Assembly: GCA_026770705.1 (NCBI GenBank)
Contig: JANJGN010000021.1
Location: 98,890,001-98,954,000 of the forward strand
From: Isurus oxyrinchus
Taxonomy: Eukaryota
Length of the DNA stretch: 64,000 nt
Direction: 5' to 3'
A program made the position numbers and the translations under genes. The notes under the pieces are model-generated. The model had not been told where the DNA came from, ran no database searches, and worked only from the letters and a program-made list of their open reading frames with translations. Below, piece after piece: positions 13,751 to 52,809 of the stretch (positions are counted from its first letter, which is position 1; each line of letters starts with the position of its first letter).

Positions 13751-14089
13751 TGGATGGACCGTGTTGTGAATATGCAGCTTAGCTGCATCCAGTCTATGTA
13801 AAAGATCCACGACACTTTTGGAAGAGCAGCCTGTGTGCTCCCCTGATTTCCTGGTGAATATTTCCCCTTGACCATCACCCAGAAATAAAATAGATACTCA
13901 GGTCTTTATCATATTGCTGTTTGTGGAATCTTGCTGTGCACAAATTGGCTACCTTGTTTCTGACAGCACCTCAAAAGGCACTGGCTGGCTGTAAACACGT
14001 TGGGATGTCCCAGGACTGAAAGCTGTACTTGCAGTTCTCTGAAATATATGAGAGGTGCACACAAACCACAGGCTATTAAATGTCACTGA

Positions 14090-14419
14090 ATTGATTCGCA
14101 ACAATCATTTTATTCTGCTTCAACAGCCCACACCTGGAGTCTGTAGAATGGAAACATTTCTGATCTCACAGAATCACATAATACAGCCCCACAAGCATGG
14201 GGATTGTACACAGTCTGCTAAATACACCAGGTATTGTTCCCTCTGTATCCCATTCAAAGGAGGGGGGATGGAGATGGACAATAGCACTCTCCCTATTTTA
14301 GGCTTTCAGCATTAGCTTCAAGCTAATGGGCAGTTAGAGCATAGTTAGCCACAGAGTAAAGCTTCCAGTTCTCGCTGAGGAAGTGGAGTTGAATGCAGGC
14401 TCCACAGAGTCTTCAGAGC
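14090..14419 (-). other. Candidate distal terminal (3'UTR) exon of gene A
   Basis: Polypyrimidine tract plus CAG acceptor (ccctctctgtcttgtcag) at 14420, and AATAAA on the minus strand at 14109-14114. Confidence 0.35.
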
Positions 14420-15111
14420 CTGACAAGACAGAGAGGGTGAATTTCAACGTTTCAGCATGGTCTGAATTGGAGCCCAGATCCCAGAGGTGAAGAGTCAGTC
14501 TTGAGCATGCTGTATATCACACTTGTACCGACCCATCAATTGATCCCCAGCAGCTGAACACACACAGCAGCCCCTCAGTCAGGTGTATGAATGCCTTAAG
14601 TAAAGGTCATAGCAGTGACCCTCTACCTGCACTCGCTCCAGCCTGACCGGTGAGACCCTTCCCCATGTTAAACCCTCACAGAGCTAACTCAGCATATGGC
14701 AATAGGGCCTTTGTAATCCCACAGGATGACCTGCTTTCGCTACATGCTTTAACATCAAGGAATTAAAAACCATCACACAGGACGTTTCAAAATAAAGATT
14801 CAAAATATCTATCATTTCCAGTTAAAATAAATCCAGGGATTGAGAGAGTTTGCAAATGCCGCAGAGGTGATTAACCTTCTGTTGAACCGACCTGAAGCAA
14901 ACCTTTTTCACCGAGTATTTCCAGGATTTTTCTGTTTCCATTTCAGATATCCAGCACCTACAATAAATTGTTTCTATATTGATTACACTACTGTCCATGC
15001 TTGTTAACAGTAGTCTATGAATTAAAGAGTTTGTATATCGCTGAGAATAGAGACAGGCCGTCACAGCTTCTCACCCTGCACTTTCCCTTTCGATCTGGTA
15101 ATCTTGCAAGT

Positions 15112-15147
15112 CTGTCCTGATGAGTGCAAGTCGAAAAGCTTAGACAG
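15112..15147 (+). ncRNA. Minimal type I hammerhead ribozyme motif (Penelope-like element relic)
   Basis: CTGTC-CTGATGA-GTGCAAGTC-GAAA-AGCT-TA-GACAG: stem I CTGTC/GACAG, intact CUGAUGA and GAAA cores, palindromic AAGCTT stem III. Confidence 0.7.
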
Positions 15148-16123
15148 CTTGTCTCTTTTCTCAGCAATAATCAAGCTCTGTTCTACTCAGCGACTAATGG
15201 TTTGCATATCCCTCCATGGTGAATTATTCTGGTGTTGCCCACTGGCGGGTGCTCTGATTGGTGAAATCTGCGCCACCCGATTGGATGAATGGTTGTCCCA
15301 GTATCCAGGGGCTACCGGTCACATTTTGAATGAAATGTACAGTGCGGCGCGGCTCTCCCCTCCCCTAGCCTGCCAGGGGTTTCTATTATAGTTTATGGTG
15401 TCGGAACACAACAGCTCCCTCACTATCCAAGCTCGGCATCTCGCATTCTTACCGTGGGGGCAAGGCACTGCCAGCTGCCCAGTGACATTCTCTGTCCTGT
15501 CAACATGCTTAGGCCCAACCCTCCACGGCACTGGTCGGACATTTTGTTTCATTTCTTGGGAGAGGCTTGGAATTAGACTGAGGACAGGCTCTAACCTATC
15601 TCCTATAAGCAATGAATGGTGCTCCAGAGCGTTTGAATGGGATTTTGGGATCCCTGGGGTTCAAAGGTGAAGGTGCTGATCGGTAAGTCAGGGTTCAAAG
15701 GGCAAGACACTGCACAGGACCCAGGGTTCAAAGGTCAAGGGCAGTGTGTGGAACCCAAGTTCAGAATGGAAGTTGACAAAACATTGAAAAGTCAGTTAGA
15801 AAAAACAAAATGAGGCAATGCAAATCGGCAAAAGGTCCATCTCCGAGCAGTTATTATGTTAGAGGCAACGGTGAAGCTGTTCAGTCATTCGTCAGTAGAA
15901 CAGAGAGAGAGAGTCTCCATCTGGGCAGTTGGTGAGACTCTTGGATTGGTTGAGAGATTAAAGTTTGCCTGGGAAGGAGAAACAGGAGGAGGTTAGAGTT
16001 GGAACATTGCCGCTCGATAACCTGTCATTTGCTTTTATTTGATGAACAAGACGTGAGACCGGGATTCCCATCTTTACTCACCTGTGCTTATACCTTATCC
16101 TCCATCTTAACTGCTCTGGGTCC

Positions 16124-16203
16124 CTAGATCACTCTTCCCATAATTGCCAGCAAGAGGCCGAGGACTGGGCCAGAATGAATGGTCTCACTCACCCCTTCGA
16201 CAC
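16124..16203 (-). CDS. Candidate last coding exon of MHC class I-like gene A (short hydrophobic C-terminus, stop at 16124-16126)
   Basis: Acceptor tgttctttccctggtgtgcag. In phase 1 it reads (G)VEGVSETIHSGPVLGLLLAIMGRVI*. Donor CAG|GTGAGT at 16082/16081 and AATAAA at 16034-16039. No better TM exon was found downstream of alpha3. Confidence 0.5.
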
Positions 16204-21711: not shown

Positions 21712-21984
21712 CCGACTGCACTGTCAGTGTCTTGGGCAGGCTGCTATGTTGAACTTTACAGAAGTAGCTCTTTGGGTTATTGTCCTCAATGTCTATGAGG
21801 ATCTCCATTCTGTATGTTGCATTGTAGTTTGGCAGAACGGTCACTGTAAGGGCATCCAATACAGGCTCTCCATTCCGCAGCCAGGTGGCATTGATAGCAC
21901 GGGGATAGAAGGCAGTGACAAGACAAAGGAGAGATGTGGAGCCATCAGTGGACGTCTTACTGAAAACCAGCACCTCAGGGGCAA
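21712..21984 (-). CDS. Gene A exon 4: MHC class I alpha3 (C1-set Ig) domain
   Basis: ttcttcag acceptor, G|GTAAGT donor, 273 nt, phase 1-1. (V)APEVLVF...LLCLVTAFYPRAINATWLRNG...LPNYNATY...YFCKVQHSSL. Confidence 0.93.
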
Positions 21985-22044: not shown

Positions 22045-22910
22045 ACAGAACACACTCAGAATCTGAATCCAGGTCACACTCAGAATCTGAATCCAGGCCA
22101 CACTCAGAATCTGAATCCAGGCCACACTCAGAATCTGAATCCAGATCACACTCAGAGTCTGAATCCAGGTCACACTCAGAATCTGACTCCAGATAATGCT
22201 CTGAATCCAGATCCAGATCACACTCAGAATCTGAATCCAGATCATTCTCAGAATAAGAATCTAGATCACGCTCAGAATCTAGATCCATATCACACTCAGA
22301 GAATCTAGATCCAGATCATTCTCAGAATAAGAAAGTAAATCGCACTCAGAATCTGGATCCATATCACTCAGAGAATTTAGATCCAGATCATACTCATCAC
22401 CCAGATCCAGATCACACTCAGAATCAGAATCCACATCATTCTCAGAATAAGAATCTAGATCACAGTCAGAATCCAGATCCACTTCACACTCAGAGAATCT
22501 AGACCCAGATCATACTCATCACCCAGATCTAGATCACATTGAGAATCTGGATCCATGTCACACTCAGAATCTGGAACCATATCACATTGAGAATTCAGGC
22601 CTAGGTCACACCCAGAATCTAGATCCAGATCATGCTCGTCACTGAGATCCAGATCACATTGCGAATTTGGATCCAGATCACATCGATAAACGGAATCCAG
22701 AACACACTCAGAATCTAGATCCAGCTCAAACTCATCACCCAGATTCAGATCACAATGAGAATTTGGTTCCAGATCACACTGAGAATCTGGATCCAGGACA
22801 CACTCAGAATCAAAATCCAGATCACACTCAGAATCCAGATCCACATCACACTTAGAACCCAAATCCAGATTACACTCAGAATCCGGATCCAGATCACATT
22901 GAGAATCCAA
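22045..22910. repeat. 24-bp minisatellite (CCAGATCACACTCAGAATCTGGAT) filling intron 3 of gene A
   Basis: Direct tandem units, which give the DLDSDSEC-type ORFs. Confidence 0.92.
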
Positions 22911-22928
22911 TTGTACAGTACAACTTGC

Positions 22929-23204
22929 CTTTTCTTTCCAGGGCTGCTTTACCAGCTTGAAGATTTGACTGAAGATTTCGGACACAGTTGGTGTTCAGTT
23001 TCTGGACCAAAGCGATATTTTGGTTGAGGATGCTTTCAAATTCTTTATTCAGTAAAGCTAATAAACCTATTCCACTGCAACGCACGGTGGTTATTTCACA
23101 TTGAATCACTCCATAAATATTTTTCATCTTTACAAGGCCGTTCTTGTTGGCATTCTTGTCGTTTTCTGGCACACAGCTCCAGATCCCCAGTACGTATGTG
23201 ATAT
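22929..23204 (-). CDS. Gene A exon 3: divergent MHC class I alpha2 domain
   Basis: tttgcag acceptor, 276 nt, phase 1-1, open. (H)ITYVLGIWSC...IQCEITTVRC...ILNQNIALVQKLNTNCVRNLQSNLQAGKAALERK, with C101/C164-equivalent cysteines. Donor is AAG|GCAAGT. Confidence 0.85.
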
Positions 23205-24467: not shown

Positions 24468-24716
24468 GAAAGCTGTTGAGGAATGGACTAAGGCTGCTGA
24501 CGAGAATCATGTGAAGAGCGTTTGCGGTCCTGGTCTGCTCCTGCCAGTAGTCATCTGCAAAACTGTCAGCCATCCACTGCTGCCTGGGCTCAGCCTTTCT
24601 CAGGGAGCTGTCGTAGTACTGTGTCGGTAGGTCATCCAACATTCCGACCACCGAGAATTCCGGCACGCCAGGGAGGTCCTTGTAGTAGATGAAGAGTTGC
24701 TGAAAGGTGTGGAAGT
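24468..24716 (-). CDS. Gene A exon 2: MHC class I alpha1 domain
   Basis: ttccctcag acceptor, C|GTGAGA donor, 249 nt, phase 1-1. (D)FHTFQQLFIYYKDLPGVPEFSVVGMLDD....YYDS...AEPRQQWM...DYWQEQTR. Confidence 0.9.
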
Positions 24717-28271: not shown

Positions 28272-28548
28272 CAGCTGCTACTGTGTGTCGGTGGTGGAGG
28301 GAGGGAATGTTTGTGGATGTGGTGCCAATCAAATGGGCAACTTTGTCCTGGATGGTATCAAGCTTCTTGAATGTTATGGGAGCTGCACTCATCCAGGCAA
28401 GTGGGGAGTATTCCATCACACTCCTTACTTGTGCCTTGTAGATGGTGGACAGGCTTTGAGGAGTCAGGAGGTGAGTTACTTGCTGCAGGATTCCTAGCCT
28501 CTGATCTGCTCTGCTCTTACAGCCACAGTATTTATATGGCCAGTCCAA
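28272..28548 (-). mobile_element. Inverted copy of LINE segment 26985-27262
   Basis: Reverse complement aligns to 26985-27262 (DWPYKYCG.KSRA.QRL.ILQQVTHLL in both ORFs). Confidence 0.85.
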
Positions 28549-29090
28549 GCACTCCCTCAGCACTGTCCCTCTGACAGTACACCACTCCCTCAGTTATGAC
28601 CCTCTTATAATGCAGCACTGCCTCAGTACTGACCCTCTGGCAGTGCAAAACTCCCTCAGTACTGACCCTCTGAGAATGCAGCACTCCTTCATTTATGACC
28701 CTCTTACAGTGCAGCACTCCCTCAATACTGACCCTCTGACTGTGCACCACTCCCTCGGTACTGACCCTCTGACAGTGCAGCACTCCCTCACCGCTGAACC
28801 TCTGACAGTGCAGCACTCCCTCGGTACTGACCCTCTGACAGTGCAGCACTCCTTCACCGCTGACCCTCACAGTGCAGCACTCCCTCAGCACAGACCCTCT
28901 TACAGTACAGCACTCCCTCAGTACTGACCCTCTAACCGTGTACCACTCCCTCGGTACTGACCCTCTGACAGTGCAGCATTCCCTCAGCGCTGACCCTCTG
29001 ACAGTGCAGCAATTCCTCAGACTGGCCCTCTGACAGTGCAGCACTTCCTCAGTACTGACCCTCTGACAGTGCAGCACTGCCTCAGCACTG
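28549..29090 (-). repeat. 30-bp SINE-derived minisatellite in intron 1 of gene A
   Basis: Reverse complement of the unit at 12905-13750. Confidence 0.9.
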
Positions 29091-29169
29091 ACTGGCACCC
29101 TGGGATCAGTGCCCATACTCGGCACCACCTCACTGCCATTCAGTTCTCCCCAGCAACTCCTACCCTTAC

Positions 29170-29227
29170 CTGCTTGGACGCCGATTGCAGTGCATAGGGA
29201 CAGCAGGGTGAATCTCAGCCCCGTCAT
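29170..29227 (-). CDS. Gene A exon 1: signal peptide
   Basis: MTGLRFTLLSLCTAIGVQA followed by G|GTAAGG (phase 1), joining alpha1 as VQA-DFHT. In-frame upstream ATGs are possible (MPGMEDWNRH). Confidence 0.85.
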
Positions 29228-29525
29228 GTGTCTGTTCCAATCCTCCATCCCGGGCATCAGGAGGAGCACGAGTCCTGGGAGTGACAAGCAGGGCAGCAGT
29301 GCCTGGAGCTGATTAACACTGCACTCTGGCGCGGGACCCTACAGGTGTCGCCTTTTGGGTCTCTCACTCAGCCCCAGTGTGTCTGACAGTCCGAGCAAGA
29401 CGCTTGGCTCCGCAAGTGCCACCCACCCACCCAGTCCAACAGGGGATTAAGTCCGGTGTGCACCAGCCCAGGGGAAGGACAGCTCAGAATGAACTCCCAA
29501 CGTGCGAGAACTCACACTCTGCTCA

Positions 29526-36718: not shown

Positions 36719-36741
36719 TACCTCCTTTCCACCTTCGCCTG

Positions 36742-36905
36742 TTACTTGGTTGAACCCTGGTCTGATTGTTGAAACAGTGGTTGTTGTATACTCTCGGTAA
36801 TTGTATTTGAACTGGGAGCGTCTGCTGGAATTGAAACCAAGGTATCTCCACTGCCTTTTATCTTGTCAACTGGGGAAGATTGCAATGGCTGCTTGCTGTC
36901 AGAAC
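36742..36905 (-). CDS. Gene B cytoplasmic exon 2 with stop
   Basis: ttctgattgttag acceptor. (S)SDSKQPLQSSPVDKIKGSGDTLVSIPADAPSSNTITESIQQPLFQQSDQGSTK*. Donor GAG|GTAATA 20 nt after the stop; AATAAA at 35343-35348. Confidence 0.65.
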
Positions 36906-38015
36906 CTAACAATCAGAAAATAACAAAACGTCAGCAAATAAACCCAAACAGAGCATCATGTACAGAAGGCCATCTCATTCTGCTTGGGTTAACCCAGGAT
37001 AGCGCACAGACTGACGATGTTGAACAGATCACTGTCTCTTCATGTCAATGCGACCAGCACCACGTCATTGTGACCTCTGCCATGTCATGTGACTGATGCC
37101 ATGTCATGTGACCTGTAGCATCATTGTGACTAGTGCCATGACCATGTGATTTGTGCACTGGAATGTGACTAGTGCTGTGTCACGTGACCTGCGCCATGTG
37201 AATCAGGGGGTCAATCTGACCAACTTCACAATTGGGAATCAGGGTCAGGGGCCAGTCTCCCTGCTGTGGCTGCACTTTCCCCAGTCGCCCACCCTCTGAT
37301 AACTCAACTGCTGGCAATCAGGAAATCCAACGCCATAAACTGCAAGCCTTTCATGAAAAGATCAGGACCGGAAATCTCCTCTACCTTCTCCTGGTAGTGA
37401 TTTCAGGATAAAGCCCGTCGACATGGAAAAACCAGGTATTCACCGAGTGGTGGGGAGCAGAGGGATGCTCTCTATAAGATACTCTCAGTATATACACTGA
37501 CTACAATGTTAGTCTAATCACGTTCAACAGACAGCACACGGGCAATGGCTCCACTCACCTCGGAACCCCCTCCCCTCTTATTGTTCATCTGACAACTGCC
37601 CTCACCACCTCTCATTTGTCATTCCCCTGCATTTTCTCAACTCCCCCCGCTCCCCTCCCCTTAACACATATACACTCACGCTTCCCTCACCACCACCTCA
37701 CTATCTCTCATCTTCCCCCACCTCCCCTTCACAGCCCTCCAACTCTCACCCTCCCCTCCCCGTCTCTCATCTGTCCCCACCTCCCCTTCTCCCCTCTCCA
37801 ACTCTCACCCTACATGCCCCGCGTACCTCCTCTTGCCTTCCTTTTCCTCTTCTCCTCCTTCCCCTGCCTTCCTTGTTCCCCATTTCCCCCCGATTCAACA
37901 GTCAGGATGAGAAATTTGGATTGACCCCATGATCGTTCTCGGGGAGGGCTGTCACTCCCTGAATATCCCACGCTAAAATTTAATCCATTAATCTCGGTAT
38001 TCCCAATTTACTTAC

Positions 38016-38045
38016 TTTCTGCCACAGAGCCATCACTTTCAGAAG
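38016..38045 (-). CDS. Gene B 30-nt cytoplasmic micro-exon
   Basis: tttttattctgcag|CTTCTGAAAGTGATGGCTCTGTGGCAGAAA|GTAAGT, giving (A)SESDGSVAE in phase 1-1. Confidence 0.75.
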
Positions 38046-38284
38046 CTGCAGAATAAAAACACAAAGCTTCAGTCATTGAGAAATCAGTGGGAATATATTA
38101 TAATCACGGACAGTTTTTACAAACAGTTCCATCATCTGTGTGGTCAGGAAAACAACCGGGTGCAAATCCTCAGGGATTATTTCCATCAAACTCTGTACTT
38201 TCAGGGATTGGGGCAGGAAAAGGAGGGGTTGTGTGGTGGTGGTGGTGGTGGTGGGTGGGGGGGGGGGGGGCGGGCGGGGGCAGT

Positions 38285-38930
38285 GCCCAGTGCTGAGGGA
38301 GTGCTGCACTGTCAGAGGGTCAGTACTGAGAGAGTGCTGTCATGTCAGAGCATGAGTATTGGGGGACTGCTGCACTGTTGGAGGACCAGTATTGAGGGAG
38401 TGTTGCACTGCTGCAGGGATGTTATTGAGGGAGTGTTGTACCGTTTTAGTATCACTACTGCAGGAATGCTGCAGTGTTGGAGGGCAGGTGATGAGGCATT
38501 GCTGCAATGTCAGATGCGTAGCATTGAAGGTGTGCTGCACAGTCAGAGGAGCAGCAGTGAGGGAGTGCTGCACTGGCGGAGAGTTAGCAGGGAGGGTGCT
38601 GCGCTGAGTGAGTGGCAGCACCTAGGGAGTGCTGCACTGTCAGAGATGCAGCCTTTTGGGTGAGCCATTAGACTGAGATCCAGTCTGTCCTGTTAAGTCA
38701 ATGTAAAAGATCCCGTGGTCTCCTGTGAGGAACACCAGGCAATGTTTCCTGGGTATCCTGGGTAGTATTCAACCTAAACCACCTGCAATACAACAGGTTA
38801 TTTGGCCACTTGTAGACGGCAGTGTGTAGGATCTTGCTGTGCACCAACCGGCTACTATGTTTCCTACATTACGACATTATCACATTCCCGAGCTTTTTCA
38901 GGGTGCTATATAAATGTGAGTCTTTCTTTT
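38285..38930 (+). mobile_element. DeuSINE-like element with an old, degenerate internal 30-mer expansion
   Basis: About 11 decayed GAGGGAGTGCTGCACTG units followed by SINE body and tail (GCTATATAAATGTGAGTCTTTCTTT). Confidence 0.7.
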
Positions 38931-39009
38931 TCATAATAGTCCGATGTGCTAATTGTAGAGTGTCGAGTGGTGACTGTGAGGGAGCCATCAGTGAATAATG
39001 AAATCTTAC

Positions 39010-39144
39010 CAACACCAAAACACCAGCCGAATTTCTCCTTTACTTCCTGTTGCAGCTTCCAGCAGAAAAAGCCAGCAACAACGAGTACAATAAATAGCAC
39101 CAACAGAGCCACAGCGATAATCACTCCAGATGCTCCACCTTTAA
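39010..39144 (-). CDS. Gene B transmembrane exon
   Basis: 135 nt, phase 1-1. (V)KGGASGVIIAVALLVLFIVLVVAGFFCWKLQQEVKEKFGWCFGV, with G|GTAAGA donor. Confidence 0.88.
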
Positions 39145-39207
39145 CTGAATTAATAACATGGTTAGTCTCAGCTCCCAACCCCCAGATTCCAACTCAAGAA
39201 TATCCCA

Positions 39208-39525
39208 TCGGAGAGATTAAAATTTGAGCCCGTGTCCTGCTTTCTATCCTTAATGTCACTTATTGGCACATTCCTTAGATAATATCACCACCTTCAACAC
39301 CTCTTTGTCCTTTTGTCTATGACATCTTTTGGTTATCTCCACCTATCACTGGCCCTCTATCCTGCTCTACTTGTCCCACCGCCCGTTAAACCAGCTTATA
39401 TTTCACCTCCTTTCTATTTTTCCTTAGTTCTGTTGAAGAGTCATATGGACTCGAAACGTTAACTGTGTTCCTCTCCGCAGATGCTGCCAGACCTGCTGAG
39501 TTTTTCCAGGTATTTTTGTTTTTGT
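39208..39525 (+). mobile_element. Penelope-like terminal-repeat insertion with hammerhead motif (39426-39464) and 14-bp TSD
   Basis: Homologous to the arm at 18812-19136. Direct repeat TCAAGAATATCCCA at 39194-39207 and 39526-39539. Confidence 0.75.
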
Positions 39526-40969
39526 TCAAGAATATCCCAACCCAGTGTAATCGGGAATACTTGTTCTCCAGTGTTCCCCAGAGCTTTCCTCACTGCCTTT
39601 AGGAGTGGGGAAAGAGGGATAACTGGCCTTAAGTCTCGCTCCCAGTATCGAATCATGGAATCATTACAGGGCAGAAGGCCATTTGGCACATCGAGGCCCT
39701 GCTGGCTCTGCTAAGCAGCAATTCACCTGCTGCCACTCCCCACATCCCTGCACATTCCCCCCTCCAGACATTCAAAAATATGTAGAAAACAACTTATGAC
39801 ACAGAAAGAGGCCATTCTGCCCATCATGTCTGTGCTGGGTGATAAGCGAGCCACCCAGCCTAAACCCATTGTCCATTTTTAGCCCATAGCCCTGGAGTTT
39901 ATGGGGCTTCAGGTGCAAACCTTTTGAGGGTTTCTGCCTCTGCTACCGCTTCAGGTAGTTCCACACCCCTACCGCCCTCTGGGTGAAATTTTCTTTCCTC
40001 ATTTACCCCCCCCCCACCCCACTAATCCTTCTAGCGATCACGTTCAATCTATGCCTCTAGTACTGACCTCTCTGCTGAGGGAAACAGGCCCCTCCCATCC
40101 ACTCTATCCAGGGCTCCCCTCAATCAAGTCTCCACTCAGCGATAGTGGGGACCATGTGCAGTAGCCCAGGGCATACCAGGTTGCTTTGAGGCAGCTGAAG
40201 TCTGCACGGTGGGGAGGAATGGTGGGAAGGGGGATGCTGATGTTGAAGGGTCTGCACCTTAATGGGAAGGGCCGAAAGTGCAGGGAGTTAGAGGAAGAGG
40301 CAGAGCACAGCAGAGGATAAATATATCTGCAGTTCGCATAGCAACATGGGCAGACTCTGCAGAGAATTTTCACTCGAAGCAGACAGGAACCTTCAGAAAA
40401 AGTGAATGATTAAAATGTCTTCCATCTTTCTCCCAGCGCAGACAAGGATCCCTCCACCGTGAACTCAGTACAACCCGGGAATGTTACGACCATCCCTTAT
40501 CCTGGAAATTTCCTACTCCTCAGTCCCCTGTTTATATCCAATCCTTCCGCCAGGTTATTCCTGTTGCTTGCTCCATGTTCTTCTCGTTTTATATTCCGGG
40601 CTATTCCTATTCCTTCTTCTTCATGAGGTCTCTGCCTGAGGACGGTTCTGATCCACGAGCGACATGATCTTCACCTCGGGTAGCGCAAGGAGGGTGGTCC
40701 CGAATCCAGTCTAGCCGGAATACCGGTGGCACCGATCTGATCCACGGCAGCCATTCAGCCCTCCCAAAGCGTCTGAGTTGCTATGGCAACACACATTTTT
40801 ACATGCATGCTGTAGCCCAAAGCTATGGATAGGGACAGCGGATGCAACAATTTCTCTCTATTGCATGGTTGACCGGGAATCTCTCCCGCTCTTGCTGCCT
40901 GCCATTGGGGTGTGCTGGAAGGATTTACAAGTTGATATTTAACCTGCTCAGCCATGTTATGAACATACC

Positions 40970-41508
40970 TTCACAGAATCACAGTGCAGAAGAGGCCCTT
41001 TGGCCCATCGAGTCTGCACCAACACATGAGAAACACCTGACCTACCTACCTAATCCCATTTACCAGCACTTGGCCCATAGCCTTGAATGTTATGATGTGC
41101 CAAGTACTCAACCAGGTACTTTTTAAAGGATGTGAGGCAACCCGATCCACCACCCTCCCAGGCAGCGCATTCCAGACCGTCACCACCCTCTGGGTTAAAA
41201 AAGTTTCACCTCACATCCCCCCTAAACCTCCTGCCCCTCACCTTGAGCTTATGTCCCTTTGGGATTAGCCCTTCAACTAAGGGGAACAGCTGCTCCCTAT
41301 CCACCCTGTCCAAGCCCCTCATAATCGTGTACACCTCGATCAGGTCACCCCTCAGTCTTCTCTGCTCCAACGAAAACAACCCAAGTCTTTCCAACCCCTC
41401 TTCATAACTTAAATGCTTCATCGCAGGCAACATCCTGGTGAATCTCCTCTGCACCCCCTCCAGTGCAATCACATCCTTCCTATAATGTGGTGACCAGAAC
41501 TGCACCAT
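40970..41508 (-). mobile_element. Relatively young CR1 3' end
   Basis: VQFWSPHYRKDVIALEGVQRRFTRMLP....LSYEE.LERLGLFSLEQRRLRGDLIEVY. Confidence 0.92.
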
Positions 41509-42078
41509 CAGGTCCTGGATATTTAAAAGATTTAAAAGATTATCAGGTCCTGGATTGGGACTTGAACCCAGAGCTTCTAACTCAGAGGCAGTAATGCTAC
41601 CCACTGCTCCACAATACCTCAATGCTCCCATTCCTTACCCCAGATTATTTCCATTCCTTATTCCAGGTGATCCAGATTCCTCACCCCGTTAAATTCCCAC
41701 TCCTTTCCCCGGGCTTCACCCCATTCCTTACCCAACATTATTCCCATTCGGTCCCAATTATTCCCATTTCTCATCCCAAGTCATTCCCATGCCTTTTCCC
41801 AGGTTATTCCCATTCTTTATGCCAGGTTATTCGTATTCCTTATAAGGAGGAGGAAGAAGGAATGGGAATAGCCCGGGATATTAAGTGGGAAGAACATGGA
41901 GCAAGCAACAGGAATAACCTGGTGGAAGGATTGGATATAAACTGGGGGTAGAGGAGGTTATGCCCATTCCCCCCCCGCCCCGGTCAGGTTATTCCCATTC
42001 TTTATCCTGGTTTATTCCCATTTCTGACCCCAGCGTGTTCTCGTTTCTATGGCAGGTTATCTATTCCCGTTCACTTAC

Positions 42079-42353
42079 CCCAGGGTCTCTCCATTGCTCC
42101 AGAAAGCTGCTGTGTAGGACGCGACAGACATGGTTGCGGCTATCTCCGGGTTTAGTCTGGAAGTGCACCCTGATTTGGTAGGTGCCGTCATGGTTGGGTC
42201 GAATGCCGGTGCTTTGGGATTTGAAGAGGGGCTCTCCGTCTGTATACCAGATTACGTTGATGGATTGCGGGTAAAAACCAGTGACCAGGCAGTGGAGATT
42301 GAGATTCTGGCCATCCAAGCTCTTTGTGTCATAGACAATCAACTCTGGGACAA
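42079..42353 (-). CDS. Gene B alpha3 (C1-set Ig) exon, 275 nt (1-nt deletion near the 3' end)
   Basis: (V)VPELIVY...LHCLVTGFYPQSINVIW...G...IRPNHDGTYQI...VCRVLHSS. Restoring one base gives SSLSGAMERPW plus a phase 1 junction. Confidence 0.88.
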
Positions 42354-42784
42354 CTGAAGAGAGAGAGAGAGAGAAAGGAGGACAGGTTCACTCTGACTGT
42401 ACACGGCAGTGGAACCCTTCGACTGGATTAGTCACAGATGGAAAGGGACGTGGTAAGTGACTATGAAATGAAGAGGATGGTCTCACAGATCAGTCTGTGT
42501 GACAGCCTCCCTCACGCGCTGTGCTCTCGGTGAATCAGTGAATTCACCATCGGAGCCTCCTGCCGTCCTCAGCTGCAGCCTCTCCCTGCTGAGGCCCTGG
42601 CCGCAGTTTACTGGGTTCAAACCTGACCGGCTTCGGGACAGCTCTGGGGATTTCCGGTAAAACAACACTCCCCCTCGAAGATGCGGCACAGCCAGGTTCA
42701 AACTGGAATAACAGGAAAGGTGGAACCAGGATTCAGAGGAAGTGTGTGTGTGTGTGTGTGGGCAGGGTGTGGGGGCGGTCACGA

Positions 42785-45052
42785 GGACAGAGTGGGAGGG
42801 GCTGGGGAGGGGTCACCAGGGAGTGGGTGGGAGGGGCTGGGGAGGGGTCACCGGGGAGATAGCGGGAGGGGCTGGGGAGGGGTCACCGGGGAGAGAGCGG
42901 GAGGGGTCACCGGGGAGAGAGCGGGAGGGGTCACCGGGGAGAGAGCAGGAGGGGCTGAGGGGTGGGGTCACCGGGGAGAAAGCGGGAGGGGCTGGAGAGG
43001 GATCACTGGGGGGAGAGCGGGAGGGGCTGGGGAGTTCACCGGGGAGAGAGTGGGAGGGGCTGGGGCAGGGTCACCTGGGAGAGAGCAGGAGGGACTGAGG
43101 TGGTCACCGGGGAGATAGTGGGGGGTGGGTCACCAGGGAGAGTAGGGGGTGGGTCACCGGGGAGAGAGTGGGGGGTGGGTACTGGGGAGAGAGTGGGGGG
43201 TGGGTCACCGGGGAGAGATTGGGAGGGAGGGTCACCGGGGAGAGATTGGGAGGGAGGGTCACCGGGGAGAGATTGGGAGGGAGGGTCACCGGGGAGAGAT
43301 TGGGAGGGAGGGTCACCGGGGAGAGATTGGGAGGGAGGGTCACCGGGGAGAGATTGGGAGGGAGGGAGGGGGTCACCGGGGGAGATTGGGAGGGAGGGAG
43401 GGGGTCTCCGGGGAGAGATTGGGAGGGAGGGAGGGGGTCTCCGGGGAGAGAGTGGGAGGGAGGGGGGGTCGAGAGTGGGAGGGGCTGGGGTGGTCACCGG
43501 GGAGAGAGCGGGAGGGGGCTTGGGGTGGTCTCCGGGGAGAAAGCGGGAGGGGGGGGGTCACCGGGGAGAGAGTGGGGGGGGGTGGTTCACTGGGGAGAGA
43601 GTGGGAGGGGCTGGCAGGGATGCGTCACTGGGGAGAGAATGAGGTGTTCATTGGGAAAGAGACTGTGGTGGTCACTGGGGAGAGCGCGGGAGGGGTCACC
43701 GGGGAGAGAGCAGGAGGGGCTGAGGGGTGGGGTCACCGGGGAGAAAGCGGGGAGGGGCTGGAGAGGGATCACTGGGGGGAGAGCGGGAGGGGCTGGGGAG
43801 TTCACCGGGGAGAGAGTGGGAGGGGCTGGGGCAGGGTCACCGGGGAGAGAGCAGGAGGGACTGAGGTGGTCACCGGGGAGATAGTGGGGGGTGGGTCACC
43901 AGGAAGAGTAGGGGGTGGGTCACCGGGGAGAGAGTGGGGGGGTGGGTCACCGGGGAGAGATTGGGAGGGAGGAGGGGGTCACCGGGGAGAGATTGGGAGG
44001 GAGGGAGGGGGTCACCGGGGAGAGATTGGGAGGGAGGGAGGGAGGGGGTCACCGGGGAGGAGATTGGGGAGGGAGGGAGGGGAGGGGGGTCACCGGGGAG
44101 AGATTGGGAGGGAGGGAGGGAGGGGGTCACCGGGGGAGAGATTGGGAGGGGAGGGAGGGGGTCACCGGGGAGAGATTGGGAGGGAGGGAGGGGGTCACCG
44201 GGGAGAGATTGGGAGGGAGGGAGGGGGGGGTCACCGGGGAGAGATTGGGAGGGAGGGAGGGGGTCACCGGGGAGAGATTGGGAGGGAGGGAGGGGGTCAC
44301 CGGGGGAGAGATTGGGAGGGAGGGAGGGGGGTCACCGGGGGAGAGATTGGGAGGGAGGGAGGGGGTCACCGGGGAGAGATTGGGAGGGGAGGGAGGGGGT
44401 CTCCGGGGAGAGATTGGGAGGGAGGGAGGGGGTCTCCGGGGACAGAGTGGGAGGGAGGGGGGTCGAGAGTGGGAGGGGCTGGGTGGTCACCGGGAGAGAG
44501 TGGGAGGGGCTTGGGGTGTCTCCAGGGAGAAAGCGGGAGGGGGGGTCACCGGGGAGAGAGTGGGGGGGTGGTTCACTGGGGAGAGAGTGGGAGGGGCTGG
44601 CCAGGGATGCGTCACTGGGGAGAGAATGAGGTGTGTTCATTGGAAAGAGACTGTGGTGGTCACTGGGGAGAGAGTGGGGGTGTCACTGGGGAGAGAGTGG
44701 GGGTGTCACTGGGGAGAGAGTGGGGGTGTCACTGGGGGAGAGAGTGGGGGTGTCACTTGGGGAGAGAGTGGGGGTGTCACTGGGGAGAGAGTGGGGTGTC
44801 ACTGGGGAGAGAGTGGGGGTGTCACTGGGGAGAGAGTGGGGGTGTCACTGGGGAGAGAGTGGGGGTGTCACTGGGGAGAGAGTGGGGGGTGTCACTGGGG
44901 AGAGAGTGGGGGTGTCACTGGGGAGAGAGTGGGGGTGTCACTGGGGAGAGAGTGGGGGTGTCACTGGGGAGAGAGTGGGGGTGTCACTGGGGAGAGAGTG
45001 GGGGTGTCACTGGGGAGAGAGTGGGGGTGTCACTGGGGAGAGAGTGGGGGGT
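42785..45052. repeat. G-rich minisatellites (GGGTCACCGGGGAGAGATTGGGAGGGA; GGGGGTGTCACTGGGGAGAGAGT) filling the gene B alpha2-alpha3 intron
   Basis: Visible directly, with an internal ~0.8-1 kb duplication (about 42900-43680 vs 43680-44670). Confidence 0.95.
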
Positions 45053-45109
45053 GCCATTGGCCAGTGGTTTGATGGATGCTTGTGACAGGAGGTTTGGAGT
45101 CAGACCTAC

Positions 45110-45385
45110 CTTTGCGATTCAGTGTATTAGCTCCATAACCAAGGTACGTGTTTAACCAATCAACACACATTTTCTTTGTGTACTGTTTCTTGTATATGTT
45201 GTCAGCCTTGTTACTGTTCCACTTGTTCTGGCTGCTCTCAGCGTAAGGGGAGACAGCGAACCAGGTGGCATGCTCCAGGTCGAAGCTGATCAGCTCGCGC
45301 CCATTAAAGGCGTATTGCCGAACTCCGCTCACAGTCCCGTCATCACTCACCTCGCAGCCTGAAGTGTACTGCAGGAAGTTCAGAC
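45110..45385 (-). CDS. Gene B alpha2 exon
   Basis: 276 nt, phase 1-1. (G)LNFLQYTSGCEVSDDG...QYAFNGRELISFD....TW...KWN...KQY....CVDWLNTYLGYG. Confidence 0.93.
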
Positions 45386-45467
45386 CTAAAGAAAGGTCAA
45401 AAACATCAATAATCAGCAGCCAGTCACACCCAATTTCACCAACATGCCCCAAAATCTGGGTGACAAT

Positions 45468-48400
45468 CTAACACGAGGGTGTGTTCACCGTTACACACTC
45501 CCTGTGAACCCGGGTCACTCTCTAACCTGAGAGCGTGTTCACCATTACACACTCCCTGTGAATCCAGGTCACTCTACAGCACAATGGCGTGTTCACCATT
45601 ACACACCCACTGTGAACCCAGGTCACTCTCTAACACGAGGATGAGTTCACCGTTACACACCCACTGTGAACCTGGGTCACTATCTAACATGAGGGTGTGT
45701 TCACCATTACACACTACCTGTCAACTCGGTTCATTCTCTAACATGAGGGTGTGTTTCACCATTACACACTCCCTGTGAACCTAGGTCATTCCCTAAAACA
45801 AGAGCTTGTTCAGCATTACACACCCACTGTGAACCTGGGGTCAATCTCTAACACGATGGTGTGTTTCACCGTTACAGACTCCCCGTGAACCTCGGTCAGT
45901 CTCTAACATGAGGGGCATGTTTACCATTACACACTCCCTGTGAACCTGGTTAACACTAACACGAGGGTGTGTTCACCATTACACACCCACAGTGAACCCG
46001 GGGCCATGCTCAAACACGAGGGTGTGTTCACGATTACACACTCCCTGTGTACCTGGCTCACACTCTAATGCAAGGGTGTCTTCACCGTTACACACCCAGT
46101 GTGAACCCAGGTCACTCTCTAACATGAGGGTGTCTTCACCATCACACACCAGTGTGAACCAAGGTCACTCTCTAACACGAGGGTGTGTTCACCATTACAC
46201 ACTCCCTGTGAACCCGGGTCACTCTCTAACACAAGGGTTTGTTCACCTTTACACACTCCCTGAAAACTCGGTTCACCCTCCAACACGAGGGTGTATTCAC
46301 CTTTATCCACTCCATGTGAGCCTGGGTAACACAAACACAGGGTGTGTTCACCATTACACACCCACTGAGAACGTGGGTCACACTCTAACACAAGGGTCTG
46401 TTCACCATTACACACTCCCTGTGAAGCTGGGTCACTAACACGAGGGTGTGTTCACCATTACACATTCCCTGTGAAACCCGGGTCACTCTCTAACATGAGG
46501 GTGTGTCACCATTACACACCCACTGTGAACCCGGGTCACTCTCTAACACGAGGGTGTGTTCACCATTACACACCCACTGTGAACCTGGGTCAATCTCTAA
46601 CACGAGGGTGTGTTCACCGTTACAGACTCCCCGTGAACCTCGGTCAGTCTCTAACACGAGGGCGTGTTTACCATTACACACTCCCTGTGAACCTGGTTAA
46701 CACTAACACGAGGGTGTGTTCACTGTTACACACCCACAGTGAACCCGGGCCATGCTCAAACACGAGGGTGTGTTCACGATTACACACTCCCTGTGTACCT
46801 GGCTCACACTCTAATGCAAGGATGTCTTCACCGTTACACACCCAGTGTGAACCCAGGTCAGTCTCTAACACGAGGGCGTGTTCACCATTACACACTCCCT
46901 GTGATCTCGGGTCACCCTCTAACACGAGGGTGTATTCACCTTTACCCACGCCATGTGAGCCTGGGTAACACAAACATGAGGGTGTGTTCACCATTACACA
47001 CCCACTGTGAACCTGGGTCACACTCTAACACGAGGGTCTGTTCACCATTACACTCTCCCTGTGAACCCGGGGTCAGTCTCTAATACTTGGGTGTGTTCAT
47101 CATTACACACTCCCTATGAACTCAGGTCACTCTCTAACATGAGGGTGTTAACCATTACACACTCCCTGTGAACCTGGGTCTTTCTCTACCACGAGTAACA
47201 CACCTACTGTGAACCTGAGTCACTCTCTAACACGAGGGCGTGTTCACCATTACACACCCATTGTGAACCCAGGTCACTCTCTAATACGAGGATGTGTTCA
47301 CCCTTACACATCCACTGTGAACCCGCGTCACTCTCTGAGGGCGAGCATGTGTTCCCCATTGCACACTCCCTGTGAACCCAGTGTCACTCCTCTATCACGA
47401 GGGTGTGTTCAACATTACACACTTCCTGTGAGCCTGGGTCACTCTCTAACATGAGCGTGTGTTCACCATTACACACTCCCTGTGAACCAGGATCACACTC
47501 TAACATGAGGGTGCGTTTACCATTACACACTTGCTGTGAACCTGGGTCATTCTCTACCACAAGTAACACACCCACAGTGAATCCGGGTCACTCTCTAACA
47601 TGAGGGCGTGTTCACCCCTACATACTCCCTGTTAGCCTGAGTCATTGTCTAACACGACGGCGTGTTCACCCTTACACACCCACTGTGAATCCATGTCACT
47701 CTGACACGAGGGTGTGTTCCCCATTACACACTCCCTGTGAACCCAGGTCACTCTCTAACACAAGTGTGTGTTCACCCTTACACACCCACTGTGAACCCAG
47801 GTCACTCTCTGACACGAGGGTGTCTTCCCCAATACACACTCCCTGTGAACTCGGGTCACTCTCTAACACGAGAAAATGCTCACAGTCACACACACCCACT
47901 GTGAACCTGGGTCACCCTCTAACACGAGGCTGTGTTCACCATTACACACCCCGAGTGAATCCGGCTCACTTTCTAACATGAGGGTGTGTTCACCCTTACA
48001 CACCCACTGTGAACCCGGGTTAATCACTAACATGAGGGTGTGTTCACCATTACACACGCCTTGTGAACCTCAGACACACTCTAACATGAGGGTGTGTTCA
48101 CCCTCACACACTCTCGGTGAAGCCGGGTCACACTCCAGCATGAGGGTGTCTTCACCATTATACAGTCCCCTGTGAACCTGTGTAACACGAAGATGAGGGT
48201 GTGTTCACCAATACACATTCACTGTGAACCTGGGTCAGTCTCTAAATCGAGGGTTTGTTCACCACTACACACTCCATGTGAACCTGGGTCATTCTCTAAC
48301 ATGAGAAAATGTTCACCGTTACTCACCCACTGTGAACCTGGGTAAAACGAACTTGAGGGTGCCTTCACCAACACACACTAGTGTGAACCTGGGTTACTCT

Positions 48401-51400
48401 CTAACACGAGGGCCTGTTCACCGTTACACACTCCCTGTAAACATGGGTCACACTGTAACATGAGGGCTTGTCACCCTTACACACTCCCTGTCAACTCGGT
48501 TCACCCTCCAACACGAGGGTGTGTTCACCTCTACCCACACCATGTGAGACTGGGTAACACAAACACAAGGGTGTTCACCATTACACACTCACTGTGAGCC
48601 CGGGTCACTCTCTAACATGAGTGTGTGTTCACTATTACACACTCCCTGTGAACCCGGGTCGCTGTCTAACATGAGCGTGTGTTCACCATTACACACTCAC
48701 TGTGAACCTGGGTCACTCTCTAACATGAGGGCGTCTTCACCGTTACTCACCCACTATGTACCTGGGTAAACACGAACATGAGGGTCTGTTCACTATTACA
48801 CACTCACTGTGAGCCTGGGTCACTCTCTAACATGAGGGTGTGTTCATCATTACACACTCCTTGTGAGCCTGGGTCACTCCCTAACACGAGAGCGTGTTCA
48901 CCTTTACACACACCCTGTGAAACCAGGTCACTCTCTAAAACAAGGGTGTCTTCACCATCACACACCTAGTGTGAACCTGGGTTACTCTCTAACACGAGGG
49001 CGTGTTCACCGTTACACACTCCCTACGAACCCGGGTCACACTGTAACACGAGCGCTTGTCACAGTTACAAACTCAGTTCACCCACCAACACGAGGGTGTG
49101 TTCACCTTTACCCAGACCATGTGAGAATGGGTCACCCTCTAACATGAGTGTGTGTTCCCCATTACACACTCCCTGTGAACCCGGGTCACTCTCTAACACG
49201 AGGGTGTGTTCACCATCACACACTCCCTGAGAACACAAGAAAGTGTTCACCCTTACACACCCACTGTGAACCCAAGTCACTCTCTGACACGAGGGTGTGT
49301 TCCCCATTACACACTCCCTGTGAACCTGGGTCACTCTCTAACACGAGAAAATGTTCACAGTTACACACCCACTGTGAACCCAGGTCACCCTCTAACACGA
49401 GGGTGTGCTCACCATTACACACCCCGAGTGAATCCGGCTCACTGTCTAACATGAGGGTGTGTTCACCCTTACACACCCACTGTGAACCCGGGTTCATCAC
49501 TAACATGAGGGTGTGTTCACTGTTACACATGCCTTGTGAACCTCGGTCACACTCTAACATGAGGGTGTGTTCACCCTTACACACCCACTGTGAACCCGGG
49601 TTAATCACTAACATGAGGGTGTGTTCACTGTTACACACTCCCAGTGAACCCGGGTCACTCTCTAGCATGAGGGTGTCTTCACCATTATACACTCCCTGTG
49701 AACCTGGGTCACCTCTAACACAAGGGCGTGTTCACCGTTACACATCCACTGTGAACCCGGGTCACTCTCTAACACGAGGGCGTATTCACCATTACAGACC
49801 CACTGTGAACCTGTGTAACACGAAGATGAGGGTGTGTTCACCATTACACATTCACTGTAAGCCTGGATCACTCTCTAACACGACGGCGTGTTCACTGTTA
49901 GACACACCCTGTGAAACCGGGTCACTCTCTAACACTTGAGTGTCTTCACCGTCATACACTTAGTGTGAACCGGGGTCACTCTCTAACACGAGGGTGTTCA
50001 CCGTAACACACTCCATGTGAACTCGGTTCACCCTCCAACACGAGGGCTTGTTCACCGTTACACACTCCATGTGAGCCCGGGTCACTCTCTAACATGAGCG
50101 TGTGTTCACCATTACACACTCCCTTGAACCCGGGTCACACTCTAACACGAGGGTGCGTTTACCATTACACACTTGCTGAGAACCTGGGTCATTCTCTACC
50201 ACGAGTAACACACCCACTGTGAACCTGAGTCACTCTCGAACACGAGGGCGTGTTCATCGTTACACACGCACTGTGAACCCGCGTCACTCTCTGACACGAG
50301 GGTGTGTTCCCCATTACACACTCCCTATGAACTCAGGACACTCTCTAACAGGAGGGTGTTCACCATTAGACACTCCCTGTGAACCTGGGTCTTTCTCTAA
50401 ATGAGGGTGTGTTCAGTGTTACACACCCAGTGTGAACCTAGGTAACATGAACACGAGGTGAGTTCACCATTACACACTCCCTGTGAGCCCAGGTCACTCT
50501 CTAACACAAGTGTGTGTTCACCCTTACACACCCACTGTGAACCCAGGTCACTCTCTGACACGAGGGTGTGTTCCCCATTACACAGCCCGAGTGAATCCGG
50601 CTCACTCTCTAACATGAGGGTGTGTTCACCGTTACATACGCCTTGTGAACCTCGGTCACACTCTAACATGAGGGTGTGTTCACCCTTACACACTCTCGGT
50701 GAACCCGGGTCACTATCTAGCATGAGGGTGTCTTCACCATTATACACTCCCTGTGAACCTGGGTCACCTCTAACACAAGGCCGTGTTCTCCGTTACACAC
50801 CCACTGTGAACCCAGGTCCCTCTCTAACACGAGGGCGTGTTCACCATTACAGACCCACTGTGAACCTGTGTAACACGAAGATGAGGGTGTGTTCACCATT
50901 ACACATTCATTGTGAGCCTGGGTCACTCTCTAACACGACGGCGTGTTCACCGTTAGACACACCCTGTGAAACCGGGTCACTCTCTAACACTTGGGTGTCT
51001 TCACCGTCATACACTTAGTGTGAACCGGGGTCACTCTCTAACACGAGGGTGTGTTCACCATTACACAGGTCCCTGTGAACTCGGTTCACCCTCCAACACG
51101 AGGTCTTGTTCACCATTACACACTCCACGTGTGCCTGGGTAACACGAACACTAGGGTGAGTTCACCATTACACACTCCCTGTGAGTCCGGGTCACTCTCT
51201 AACATGAGCGTGTGTTCACCATTACACACTCCCTGTGAACCTGGGTCATACTGTAACACGAGGATGCGTTTACCATTACACACTTGCTGTGAACCTGGGT
51301 CATTCTCTACCACGAGTAACACACCTACTGTGAACCCAGATCACTCTCTAATACGAGGACGTGTTCATCGTTACACACGCACTGTGAACCCAGGTCACTC

Positions 51401-52325
51401 TCTAATACAAGGATGTGTTCACCATTAAACACTCACTGTGAACCTGCGTCACTCTCTGACACGAGAGTGTGTCCCCCATTACACACTCCATGTGAGCCCG
51501 GATCACTCTCTAATACTTGGGTGTGTTCATCATTACACACTCCCTATGAACTCAGGACACTCTCTAACAGGAGGGTGTTCACCATTAAACACTCCCTGTG
51601 AACCCGCGTCACTCTCTGACACGAGAGTGTGTTCCCCATTACACACTCCCTATGAATCCGGGTCACTTTCTAATATTTGGGTGTGTTCATCATTACACAC
51701 TCCCTATGAACTAAGGTCACTCTCTAACAGGAGGGTGTTCACCATTAAACACTCCCTGTGAACCTGGGTCTTTCTCTAACATGAGGGTGTGTTCAGTGTT
51801 ACACACCCAGTGTGTACCTAGGTAACATGAACACGAAGTGAATTCACGATTACACACTCCCTGTGAGCCCGGGTCACTCTCTAACATGAGAGTGTGTTCC
51901 CCATTACACACTCCCTGTGAACCCAGGTCACTCTCTATCACGAGGGTGTGTTCACCATTACACACTCCCTGTGAACCCAGGTCACTCTCTATCACGAGGG
52001 TGTGTTCACCATTACACACTCCCTGTGAGCCCGGGTCACTCTCTAACATGAGAGTGTGTTCACCATTACACACCCACTATGAACCCGGGTCACTCTCTAA
52101 CACAAGTGTATGTTCACCCTTACACACCCACTGTGAACCCAGGTCACTCTCTGACACGAGGGCGTGTTCACCATTACACGCTCCCTGTGAACTCGGGTCA
52201 CGCTCTGATGCAAGGGTCTGTTCACCCTTACACACCCACTGTGAACCCGGTTCAATCTCTGACTCGAGGGTGTGTTCACCATGACACACTCCCTGTGAAC
52301 GTGGGTCACACTAACACGAGCGTGC
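45468..52325. repeat. 54-bp minisatellite, ~125 copies (AACACGAGGGTGTGTTCACCATTACACACTCCCTGTGAACCCGGGTCACTCTCT)
   Basis: Occupies almost the whole alpha1-alpha2 intron and gives the NTRVCSPLHTPCEPGSLS ORFs. Confidence 0.97.
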
Positions 52326-52331
52326 ACTAAC

Positions 52332-52596
52332 CATTCTTGTCGCTGTGTGTTCGCTGTGTTGCTATCTTTACATTGGCGAGGGACAGCTTCTCCCGATCGA
52401 CCAATCTCTGTGTCTCTTGATCCCAATACTCCTGCTGCAGTGATGAGTTCATCCACGGTTGCCGTGGGACGTCTTTCTTGCTGTGGCTGTCATAGTAGGT
52501 TATCTGCACACCGTCGAGAACACCAACATGAATGAACTCAGGGAGGTCCCCACTGTTAAGCATTGTGGGTATAGTAATACCTGAGGGAGTGCGACT
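52332..52596 (-). CDS. Gene B alpha1 exon, 265 nt (1-nt insertion)
   Basis: tttggcag|AGTCGCACTCCCTCAGGTATTAC gives SHSLRYYYT. The frame then shifts to TMLNSGDLPEFIHVGVLDGVQITYYDS...PRQPWM...EYWDQETQR. Donor G|GTTAGT. Confidence 0.9.
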
Positions 52597-52809
52597 CTGC
52601 CAAAGGCAAAAAAACATAGCGGATTCAGAATGGGAGCTTCACACATGATGGCTCTACCACTTACCTGTACCCCTGCCCCTCCTCCTGGCTAGGTCATTCC
52701 AAACAAGGGCAGGTAATTCCCATCTGAATGGGAGAGTTTACAAATCAATGCTGAAATAATTAAACCAAATGAAATGCAACTAAAGAAACGACCATGAGAG
52801 GTTCCAAAA

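Follow-up and report, generated by a model that had tools for sequence, protein, structure and literature searches.

A CD1-like MHC class I protein of sharks and rays, UFA, ends in a candidate GPI-addition signal

Results

Structure and identity of gene A

The window, by which we mean the whole 64,000-nucleotide stretch of DNA analysed here (G000:C21:98890001-98954000), belongs to the 4.98 Gb genome of Isurus oxyrinchus and lies where MHC class I-like genes are clustered. One of these, gene A, has five coding exons, all of them open; it lies on the minus strand, as do all features given below by their window positions. The leader exon (29170..29257; residues 1-29) ends in a GT donor, shares 27 of 29 residues with white shark XP_041069088.1 and encodes a hydrophobic core, kept in orthologues, which judged by eye is that of a signal peptide. 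The alpha1 exon (24468..24716) has AG and GT ends and 8GM8 as its best PDB match (E 5.6e-22). The alpha2 exon (22929..23204), delimited by its splice ends, is 90% identical to the white shark protein, and the alpha3 exon (21712..21984), an Ig C1 domain covered by RNA contigs, ends at 21712 with a GT donor. Behind an AG acceptor the tail exon (16082..16203) continues the frame for 26 codons to a TAG stop at 16126-16124 (16124..16126), encoding a polar spacer and a hydrophobic tip and adding 42 nt of 3'UTR. Junctions upstream of alpha3 are based on splice sites and homology, and read contigs cover the gene from alpha3 onward.

By sequence comparison gene A is shark UFA, a nonclassical MHC class I lineage already named and crystallised. 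Its top PDB match is 8GM8 (E 1.9e-88; runner-up 8.8e-33), entitled 'Crystal structure of shark nonclassical MHC CLASS I, UFA'; an AlphaFold model from a 7-row alignment (mean pLDDT 49.6) was used solely to obtain PDB titles. With nurse shark UFA as the query, the best alpha1, alpha2 and alpha3 matches in the genome are the exons of gene A, its closest relative for each of these extracellular domains, with 53% identity across the ectodomain. Each domain gave one strong match in the set of scored candidates, which marks UFA as single or low copy in this genome. An alpha3 tree of 29 rows, rooted at the midpoint only, places gene A and all 13 UFA-like database rows together (support 95/97), in a clade separate from UDA, UGA and the other paralogues. 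The 321-residue protein shares 95% identity with its white shark counterpart and 87% with basking shark XP_078392849.1. UDA lies directly upstream of gene A and multicopy class Ib genes (putative UEA) lie nearby, and the UFA lineage likewise adjoins UDA and a multicopy class Ib cluster. The lineage is named in PMC10751288 and PMC12562908, and the supplement of the former labels the matching nurse shark and stingray sequences UFA.

In the white shark orthologue aligned to 6A2B, the classical alpha2 peptide-terminus anchors are replaced by L, E, F, K and N, and gene A has the same residues. The classical anchors are T143, K146, W147, Y159 and Y171, and judged on this set gene A would not be a classical MHC class Ia gene. 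Its match to chicken CD1 (E 1.6e-21) is weaker than those to MR1 and classical chains (Xenopus class I, 5.7e-29), a ranking by similarity scores. No UFA-type alpha2 domain was found outside elasmobranchs among 116 scorable representatives (best local score 73 vs 204), a null that covers those representatives and is not proof of absence elsewhere. The earlier note on this DNA had guessed at a CD1-like molecule, which matches the UFA identity. In the accessible part of PMC10751288 UFA is called CD1-like from unpublished data, and CD1-UFA orthology is described as hard to assess; a 2025 review (PMC12562908, likewise in the part available) cites a personal communication for lipid binding by UFA and UGA.

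Several smaller features of gene A were also seen. The alpha2-alpha3 intron begins at 22928 with GC, not GT, and the protein model of white shark points to an identical join. UFA alpha3 exons are without the terminal Trp (21712-21720) with which alpha3 closes in most of the class I and II paralogues observed in the genome and the supplement alignment. A second Cys pair in alpha2, spaced seven residues, is kept by most orthologues and lost in Heptranchias and one Hypanus copy; it possibly forms a hairpin disulfide. Tandem repeats of 24-nt and 33-nt units lie in UFA introns (22046-22907 and 28548-29092), and the rest of the window is filled by several much larger low-complexity arrays.

Neighbouring and related loci

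The upstream gene, gene B, spans 36724-52640 on the minus strand and was labelled UDA by eye from the PMC10751288 supplement sequences. Its TM exon (39010..39144), encoding a 21-residue helix followed by basic residues, served as an internal control; the end of its alpha3 exon differs from that of the catshark orthologue by a short gap. Scyliorhinus torazame keeps the UDA-UFA order, RefSeq fusing both genes as XP_072329338.1. On the same contig, G000:C21:98541000-98553200 holds one further class I-like gene, present singly; its TM exon is normal, and in the alpha3 tree the gene sits on a long branch outside every named lineage. We rejected G000:C21:111483742-111483981, on this MHC-bearing contig, as beta2-microglobulin; it is an Ig heavy constant-like domain whose PDB matches include IgM and an entry named UrIg2. 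An alpha3 exon of the multicopy class Ib family lies on another contig (G000:C16:53774976-53775188), contrary to PMC10751288, which in its accessible text assigns every class I gene of elasmobranchs to the MHC; either translocation or misassembly may be responsible.

Transcripts splice alpha3 to the tail exon

The tail exon matches the genome at one place only. Each of the runs X1, X5, X7 and X8 (4 of 4, from studies P1-P4 and two organisms) has a contig in which 21712 is spliced to 16203, the junction that the earlier note had proposed looking for, and 16082 to 15968, both joints being GT-AG. Further alignment of runs X2 and X7 showed the 3'UTR joint together with a loose end reading like the alpha3 terminus, which makes X2 a fifth run; X17 and X13 do not cover the tail exon. 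We take gene A to be transcribed because these spliced joints are seen, no source run being on record as RNA, and the contigs inform on splicing, not on expression level or tissue. The tail is the transcribed end of gene A. No change at the TAG is listed in any of the five covering runs (four studies). The sole listed difference in the tail exon is 16142 A>T, silent in an Ile codon, and X5, X7 and X8 have one additional difference in the tail-exon piece whose position the output does not give.

The tail exon, the stop, its 42-nt distance to a donor and an AATAAA 85 nt past the stop all lie where the earlier note had placed them. Two of its readings gave way to the transcripts. The donor at 16081, regarded there as an alternative, is used by 5 of 5 covering runs, and the AATAAA at 16039-16034, cited there, is rejected as a polyA site because it lies inside a 113-nt 3'UTR intron (15969..16081) removed in all five. 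Contigs extend through a non-coding last exon of about 1.9 kb (14085..15968, 3' end approximate) to 14081-14140, beside an AATAAA at 14114-14109 (14109..14114) that is the likely signal. The stop-to-junction distance tolerated by nonsense-mediated decay is usually 50-55 nt; the 42 nt between stop and donor fall within it, and the spliced form is present.

A scan for a full TM exon downstream of alpha3 found none in 21.7 kb of the window and 10 kb beyond (best 19-residue hydropathy 2.07), and with the same relaxed acceptor the real TM exons of two paralogues scored 3.39 and 2.49. Stricter scans missed even the real UDA TM exon, which leaves the relaxed-acceptor scan as the valid one. Neither of the outcomes that the earlier note had named as refuting its reading occurred: transcripts join alpha3 here and to no different TM exon, and orthologues, as shown below, have no open TM exon in its place.

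The tail is conserved in sharks, skate and rays

The UFA-like proteins number 38, of which one is the crystal construct, 32 have the tail and 5 do not. Those with the tail represent 14 species in 13 genera of sharks, skate and rays (Carcharodon, Cetorhinus, Mustelus, Scyliorhinus, Heterodontus, Chiloscyllium (two species), Heptranchias, Pristiophorus, Leucoraja, Narcine, Mobula, Hemitrygon and Hypanus), 15 of the 32 being near-identical skate sequences, mostly from Logan assemblies. The tail-less models are P0004 and P0011, whose species have other, tailed models; two Narcine bancroftii RefSeq isoforms, X2 and X3 (P0012 and P0019), isoform X1 being tailed; and a model from Mobula hypostoma truncated inside alpha3. 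None of the five has a TM segment plus cytoplasmic tail, and Narcine isoforms X2 and X3, which end without the hydrophobic tip, may be soluble forms.

Comparison of the stop across orthologues, suggested in the earlier note, places it at the same position in 14 other species, with no read-through to a cytoplasmic tail. Among 15 representative tails the stop falls 15 residues past the pivot in 13 and 13 residues past it in two lamniforms, with Pro at the pivot in 14 of 15; lamniform tips (two database proteins and gene A) are two residues shorter than those of other species. Gene A and white shark have Arg third from the end of the tip, and Heterodontus has Glu second from the end. Because the stop stands in the same place in sharks, skate and rays, it predates the shark-ray split, and the same tail-less end in 14 other species is therefore no private mutation. 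Sharks and rays parted roughly 270-300 million years ago. Its place, its size (122 nt vs 135 nt for the UDA TM exon) and the leftover exon downstream suggest that the tail exon originated when an early stop cut short an ordinary TM exon.

The tail fits the layout of a GPI-addition signal

A GPI signal, as described in the accessible parts of PMC7125958 and PMC2571997, has a small residue at both omega and omega+2, then a spacer spanning omega+3 to omega+9 and a hydrophobic stretch from omega+10, with 20-30 residues in total. The end of gene A fits these published rules, in agreement with the GPI-signal layout read by the earlier note. Gly299 (16193..16195), the predicted omega residue and the only strict candidate by our rule, and Ser301 at omega+2 precede a 7-residue spacer, and Val309 begins the tip at omega+10, so that 22 residues would be removed; this is exactly the spacer and hydrophobic layout of PMC2571997. 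The tip consists of 13 hydrophobic residues, V309-I321 (16127..16165), with nothing after it.

Our GPI rule is author-devised and was written after seeing the tails. The hydrophobic segment is 11-15 residues long in 16 of 16 UFA tails (reaching 15 in several species), is followed by 0-4 residues and has a mean hydropathy of 2.0-3.2. A strict omega triple (Gly-x-Gly/Ser type) is present in all 16, a count to be read against its chance occurrence in 31% of ectodomain windows and against the relatedness of the orthologue tails. In every one of the 15 database tails at least one strict triple precedes the pivot by 9-12 residues, and across orthologues none of the omega columns is invariant. Two alkaline phosphatase ends of this genome, which we take to be GPI-anchored from their family, have 13 and 17 hydrophobic residues with a triple. 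The five TM controls (MHC genes), scored from the start of their own exon, all show a helix of 20-24 residues followed by 2-5 K/R. Within 148 new class I-like representatives, 116 could be scored, and these comprise 74 with TM plus tail, 39 others, 1 with a hydrophobic end without a triple and 2 that are GPI-like. Both of these have ray UFA tails, and none of the 114 non-UFA class I sequences passes the rule.

Other properties of the tail bear on this assignment. The hydrophobic end is given as 'about 20' residues in PMC7125958, and at 11-15 residues UFA tips are shorter. Only about 5 residues link the last alpha3 strand to Gly299 vs an expected unstructured linker of about 11, and the model has pLDDT under 50 there. 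Unprocessed GPI-type tails are normally degraded by ERAD, according to the accessible text of PMC7125958, so that a conserved, transcribed gene would be a poor fit unless the tail is used. GPI anchoring has an elasmobranch precedent in Torpedo AChE-H (PMC3045457, available in part).

Alternative explanations for the tail

We consider it probable, at about 75%, that the UFA tip is a GPI-addition signal and that this CD1-like molecule is held at the cell surface by a glycolipid anchor. The tip could instead stay uncleaved as a minimal membrane anchor without a tail, possibly keeping UFA in the ER/Golgi as an intracellular lipid handler. Such an anchor would suit an exon that sits at the place of a TM exon, resembles one in size, is followed by a further non-coding exon and is probably a TM-exon descendant, as well as the tips of up to 15 hydrophobic residues in several species. 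The 13 residues found here are, however, short for a bilayer, the basic stop-transfer cluster is absent, Heterodontus even having Glu near the very end, and the small-residue triple at GPI spacing recurs in all the database tails; we judge this outcome quite unlikely. We hold it unlikely, too, that UFA is for the most part secreted as a soluble class I protein that binds lipids, like ZAG or mouse Q10, its tip being too weak or cut without a lasting anchor. Truncated secreted class I molecules do exist (Q10 and iguana Amcr-UA; PMC2483932, seen in part), Narcine isoforms X2 and X3 end without the tip, and the tip is short and Gly-rich. Q10-type tails are polar in that source, whereas UFA tips are hydrophobic and of fixed length in 16 of 16 tails, which would be needless in a purely secreted protein.

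A further possibility is that a TM exon is decaying here, its TAG being a nonsense mutation private to this genome or a product of misassembly, or that the gene has its real TM exon elsewhere. A short run of open-looking codons between the TAG and the donor would be in keeping with this, but 14 other species stop at the same position, contigs from two organisms splice to the tail exon, no other TM exon emerged from the scan and all five coding exons are open. The transcript contigs and the orthologue stops refute a private stop or assembly error, and we give this set of explanations next to no weight.

Discussion

Were the tip a GPI-addition signal, the leader of UFA would be removed, the ER GPI transamidase would then cleave after Gly299, and the last 22 residues would be exchanged for GPI, displaying UFA on the outer leaflet of the cell surface. 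Without a tyrosine motif or any other in the cytoplasm, it would escape the lysosomal sorting of CD1b or CD1d. It would acquire lipids along the secretory route, or by exchange at the surface and in recycling endosomes as proposed for CD1a. It might also be shed by GPI-cleaving enzymes. CD1 proteins are transmembrane, and CD1b-d use tyrosine-based lysosomal routing (PMC2193123, accessible part); UFA has neither a membrane span nor a cytoplasmic tail, and the CD1 combination of TM segment and cytoplasmic tail (with a tyrosine motif in CD1b-d) is absent from gene A. The earlier note had called a CD1-like molecule without an endosomal sorting tail unusual. UFA indeed has no cytoplasmic tail, but the missing motif is not unique to it, CD1a also being without an endosomal targeting motif (PMC2193123). 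The lipid-binding groove of CD1 is likewise reported for UFA (PMC12562908, from personal communication). The other CD1-like shark lineage, UGA (PDB 9CH4), with lipid binding reported as for UFA, lies on the same MHC-bearing contig about 0.45 Mb away, and the likely UGA copy here has a normal 20-residue TM segment followed by a basic cluster, unlike UFA.

EPCR is another lipid-binding class I-like protein comparable to UFA. ULBP1-3/RAE-1 and MICA*008 are GPI-anchored class I-like proteins, ULBP and MICA being NKG2D ligands, and Qa-2 binds peptides. Mouse Qa-2 and MILL1/MILL2 are GPI-anchored class I-like proteins as well (PMC2483932 and PMC6193965, in the parts available), and MILL does not present peptide (PMC6193965). 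Qa-2 and MILL share with UFA the class I fold, a retained alpha3 domain and a C-terminal GPI signal (predicted in UFA) in place of the TM segment and tail. On the evidence here Qa-2, MILL, ULBP and MICA are not UFA orthologues, and the mammalian anchors were shown with enzymes, whereas that of UFA is predicted from sequence.

The UFA gene and the mammalian precedents for GPI-linked class I molecules were already known. The crystal construct of nurse shark UFA (8GM8) stops at alpha3, at 265 aa, without the tail region. The accessible text of PMC10751288 and PMC12562908 gives no account of how UFA is anchored in the membrane, the supplement sequences being alpha1-alpha3. Our literature search, which the primary UFA structure paper lay beyond, returned no paper giving UFA or any shark class I protein a GPI anchor; the group that solved 8GM8 may already know of the tail.

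We propose tentatively, at somewhat less than an even chance, that since the shark-ray ancestor lipid presentation has been split between a transmembrane CD1-like UGA and a GPI-anchored, sheddable UFA. UFA would then be the first natural lipid-presenting MHC-like protein with a GPI link. As a GPI-linked class I lineage it would be the first from outside the mammals and by far the most ancient. If the GPI reading is true, the switch of class I molecules from TM to GPI anchoring is not a recent mammalian quirk. UFA has been put forward as a sign that lipid presentation of the CD1 type dates back to the first jawed vertebrates, and in mammals the lipids that CD1 samples depend on its cytoplasmic tail. 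Tail-less since sharks and rays split, UFA would load and travel differently and could be shed, and together with the TM-anchored UGA it would form an ancient division of labour.
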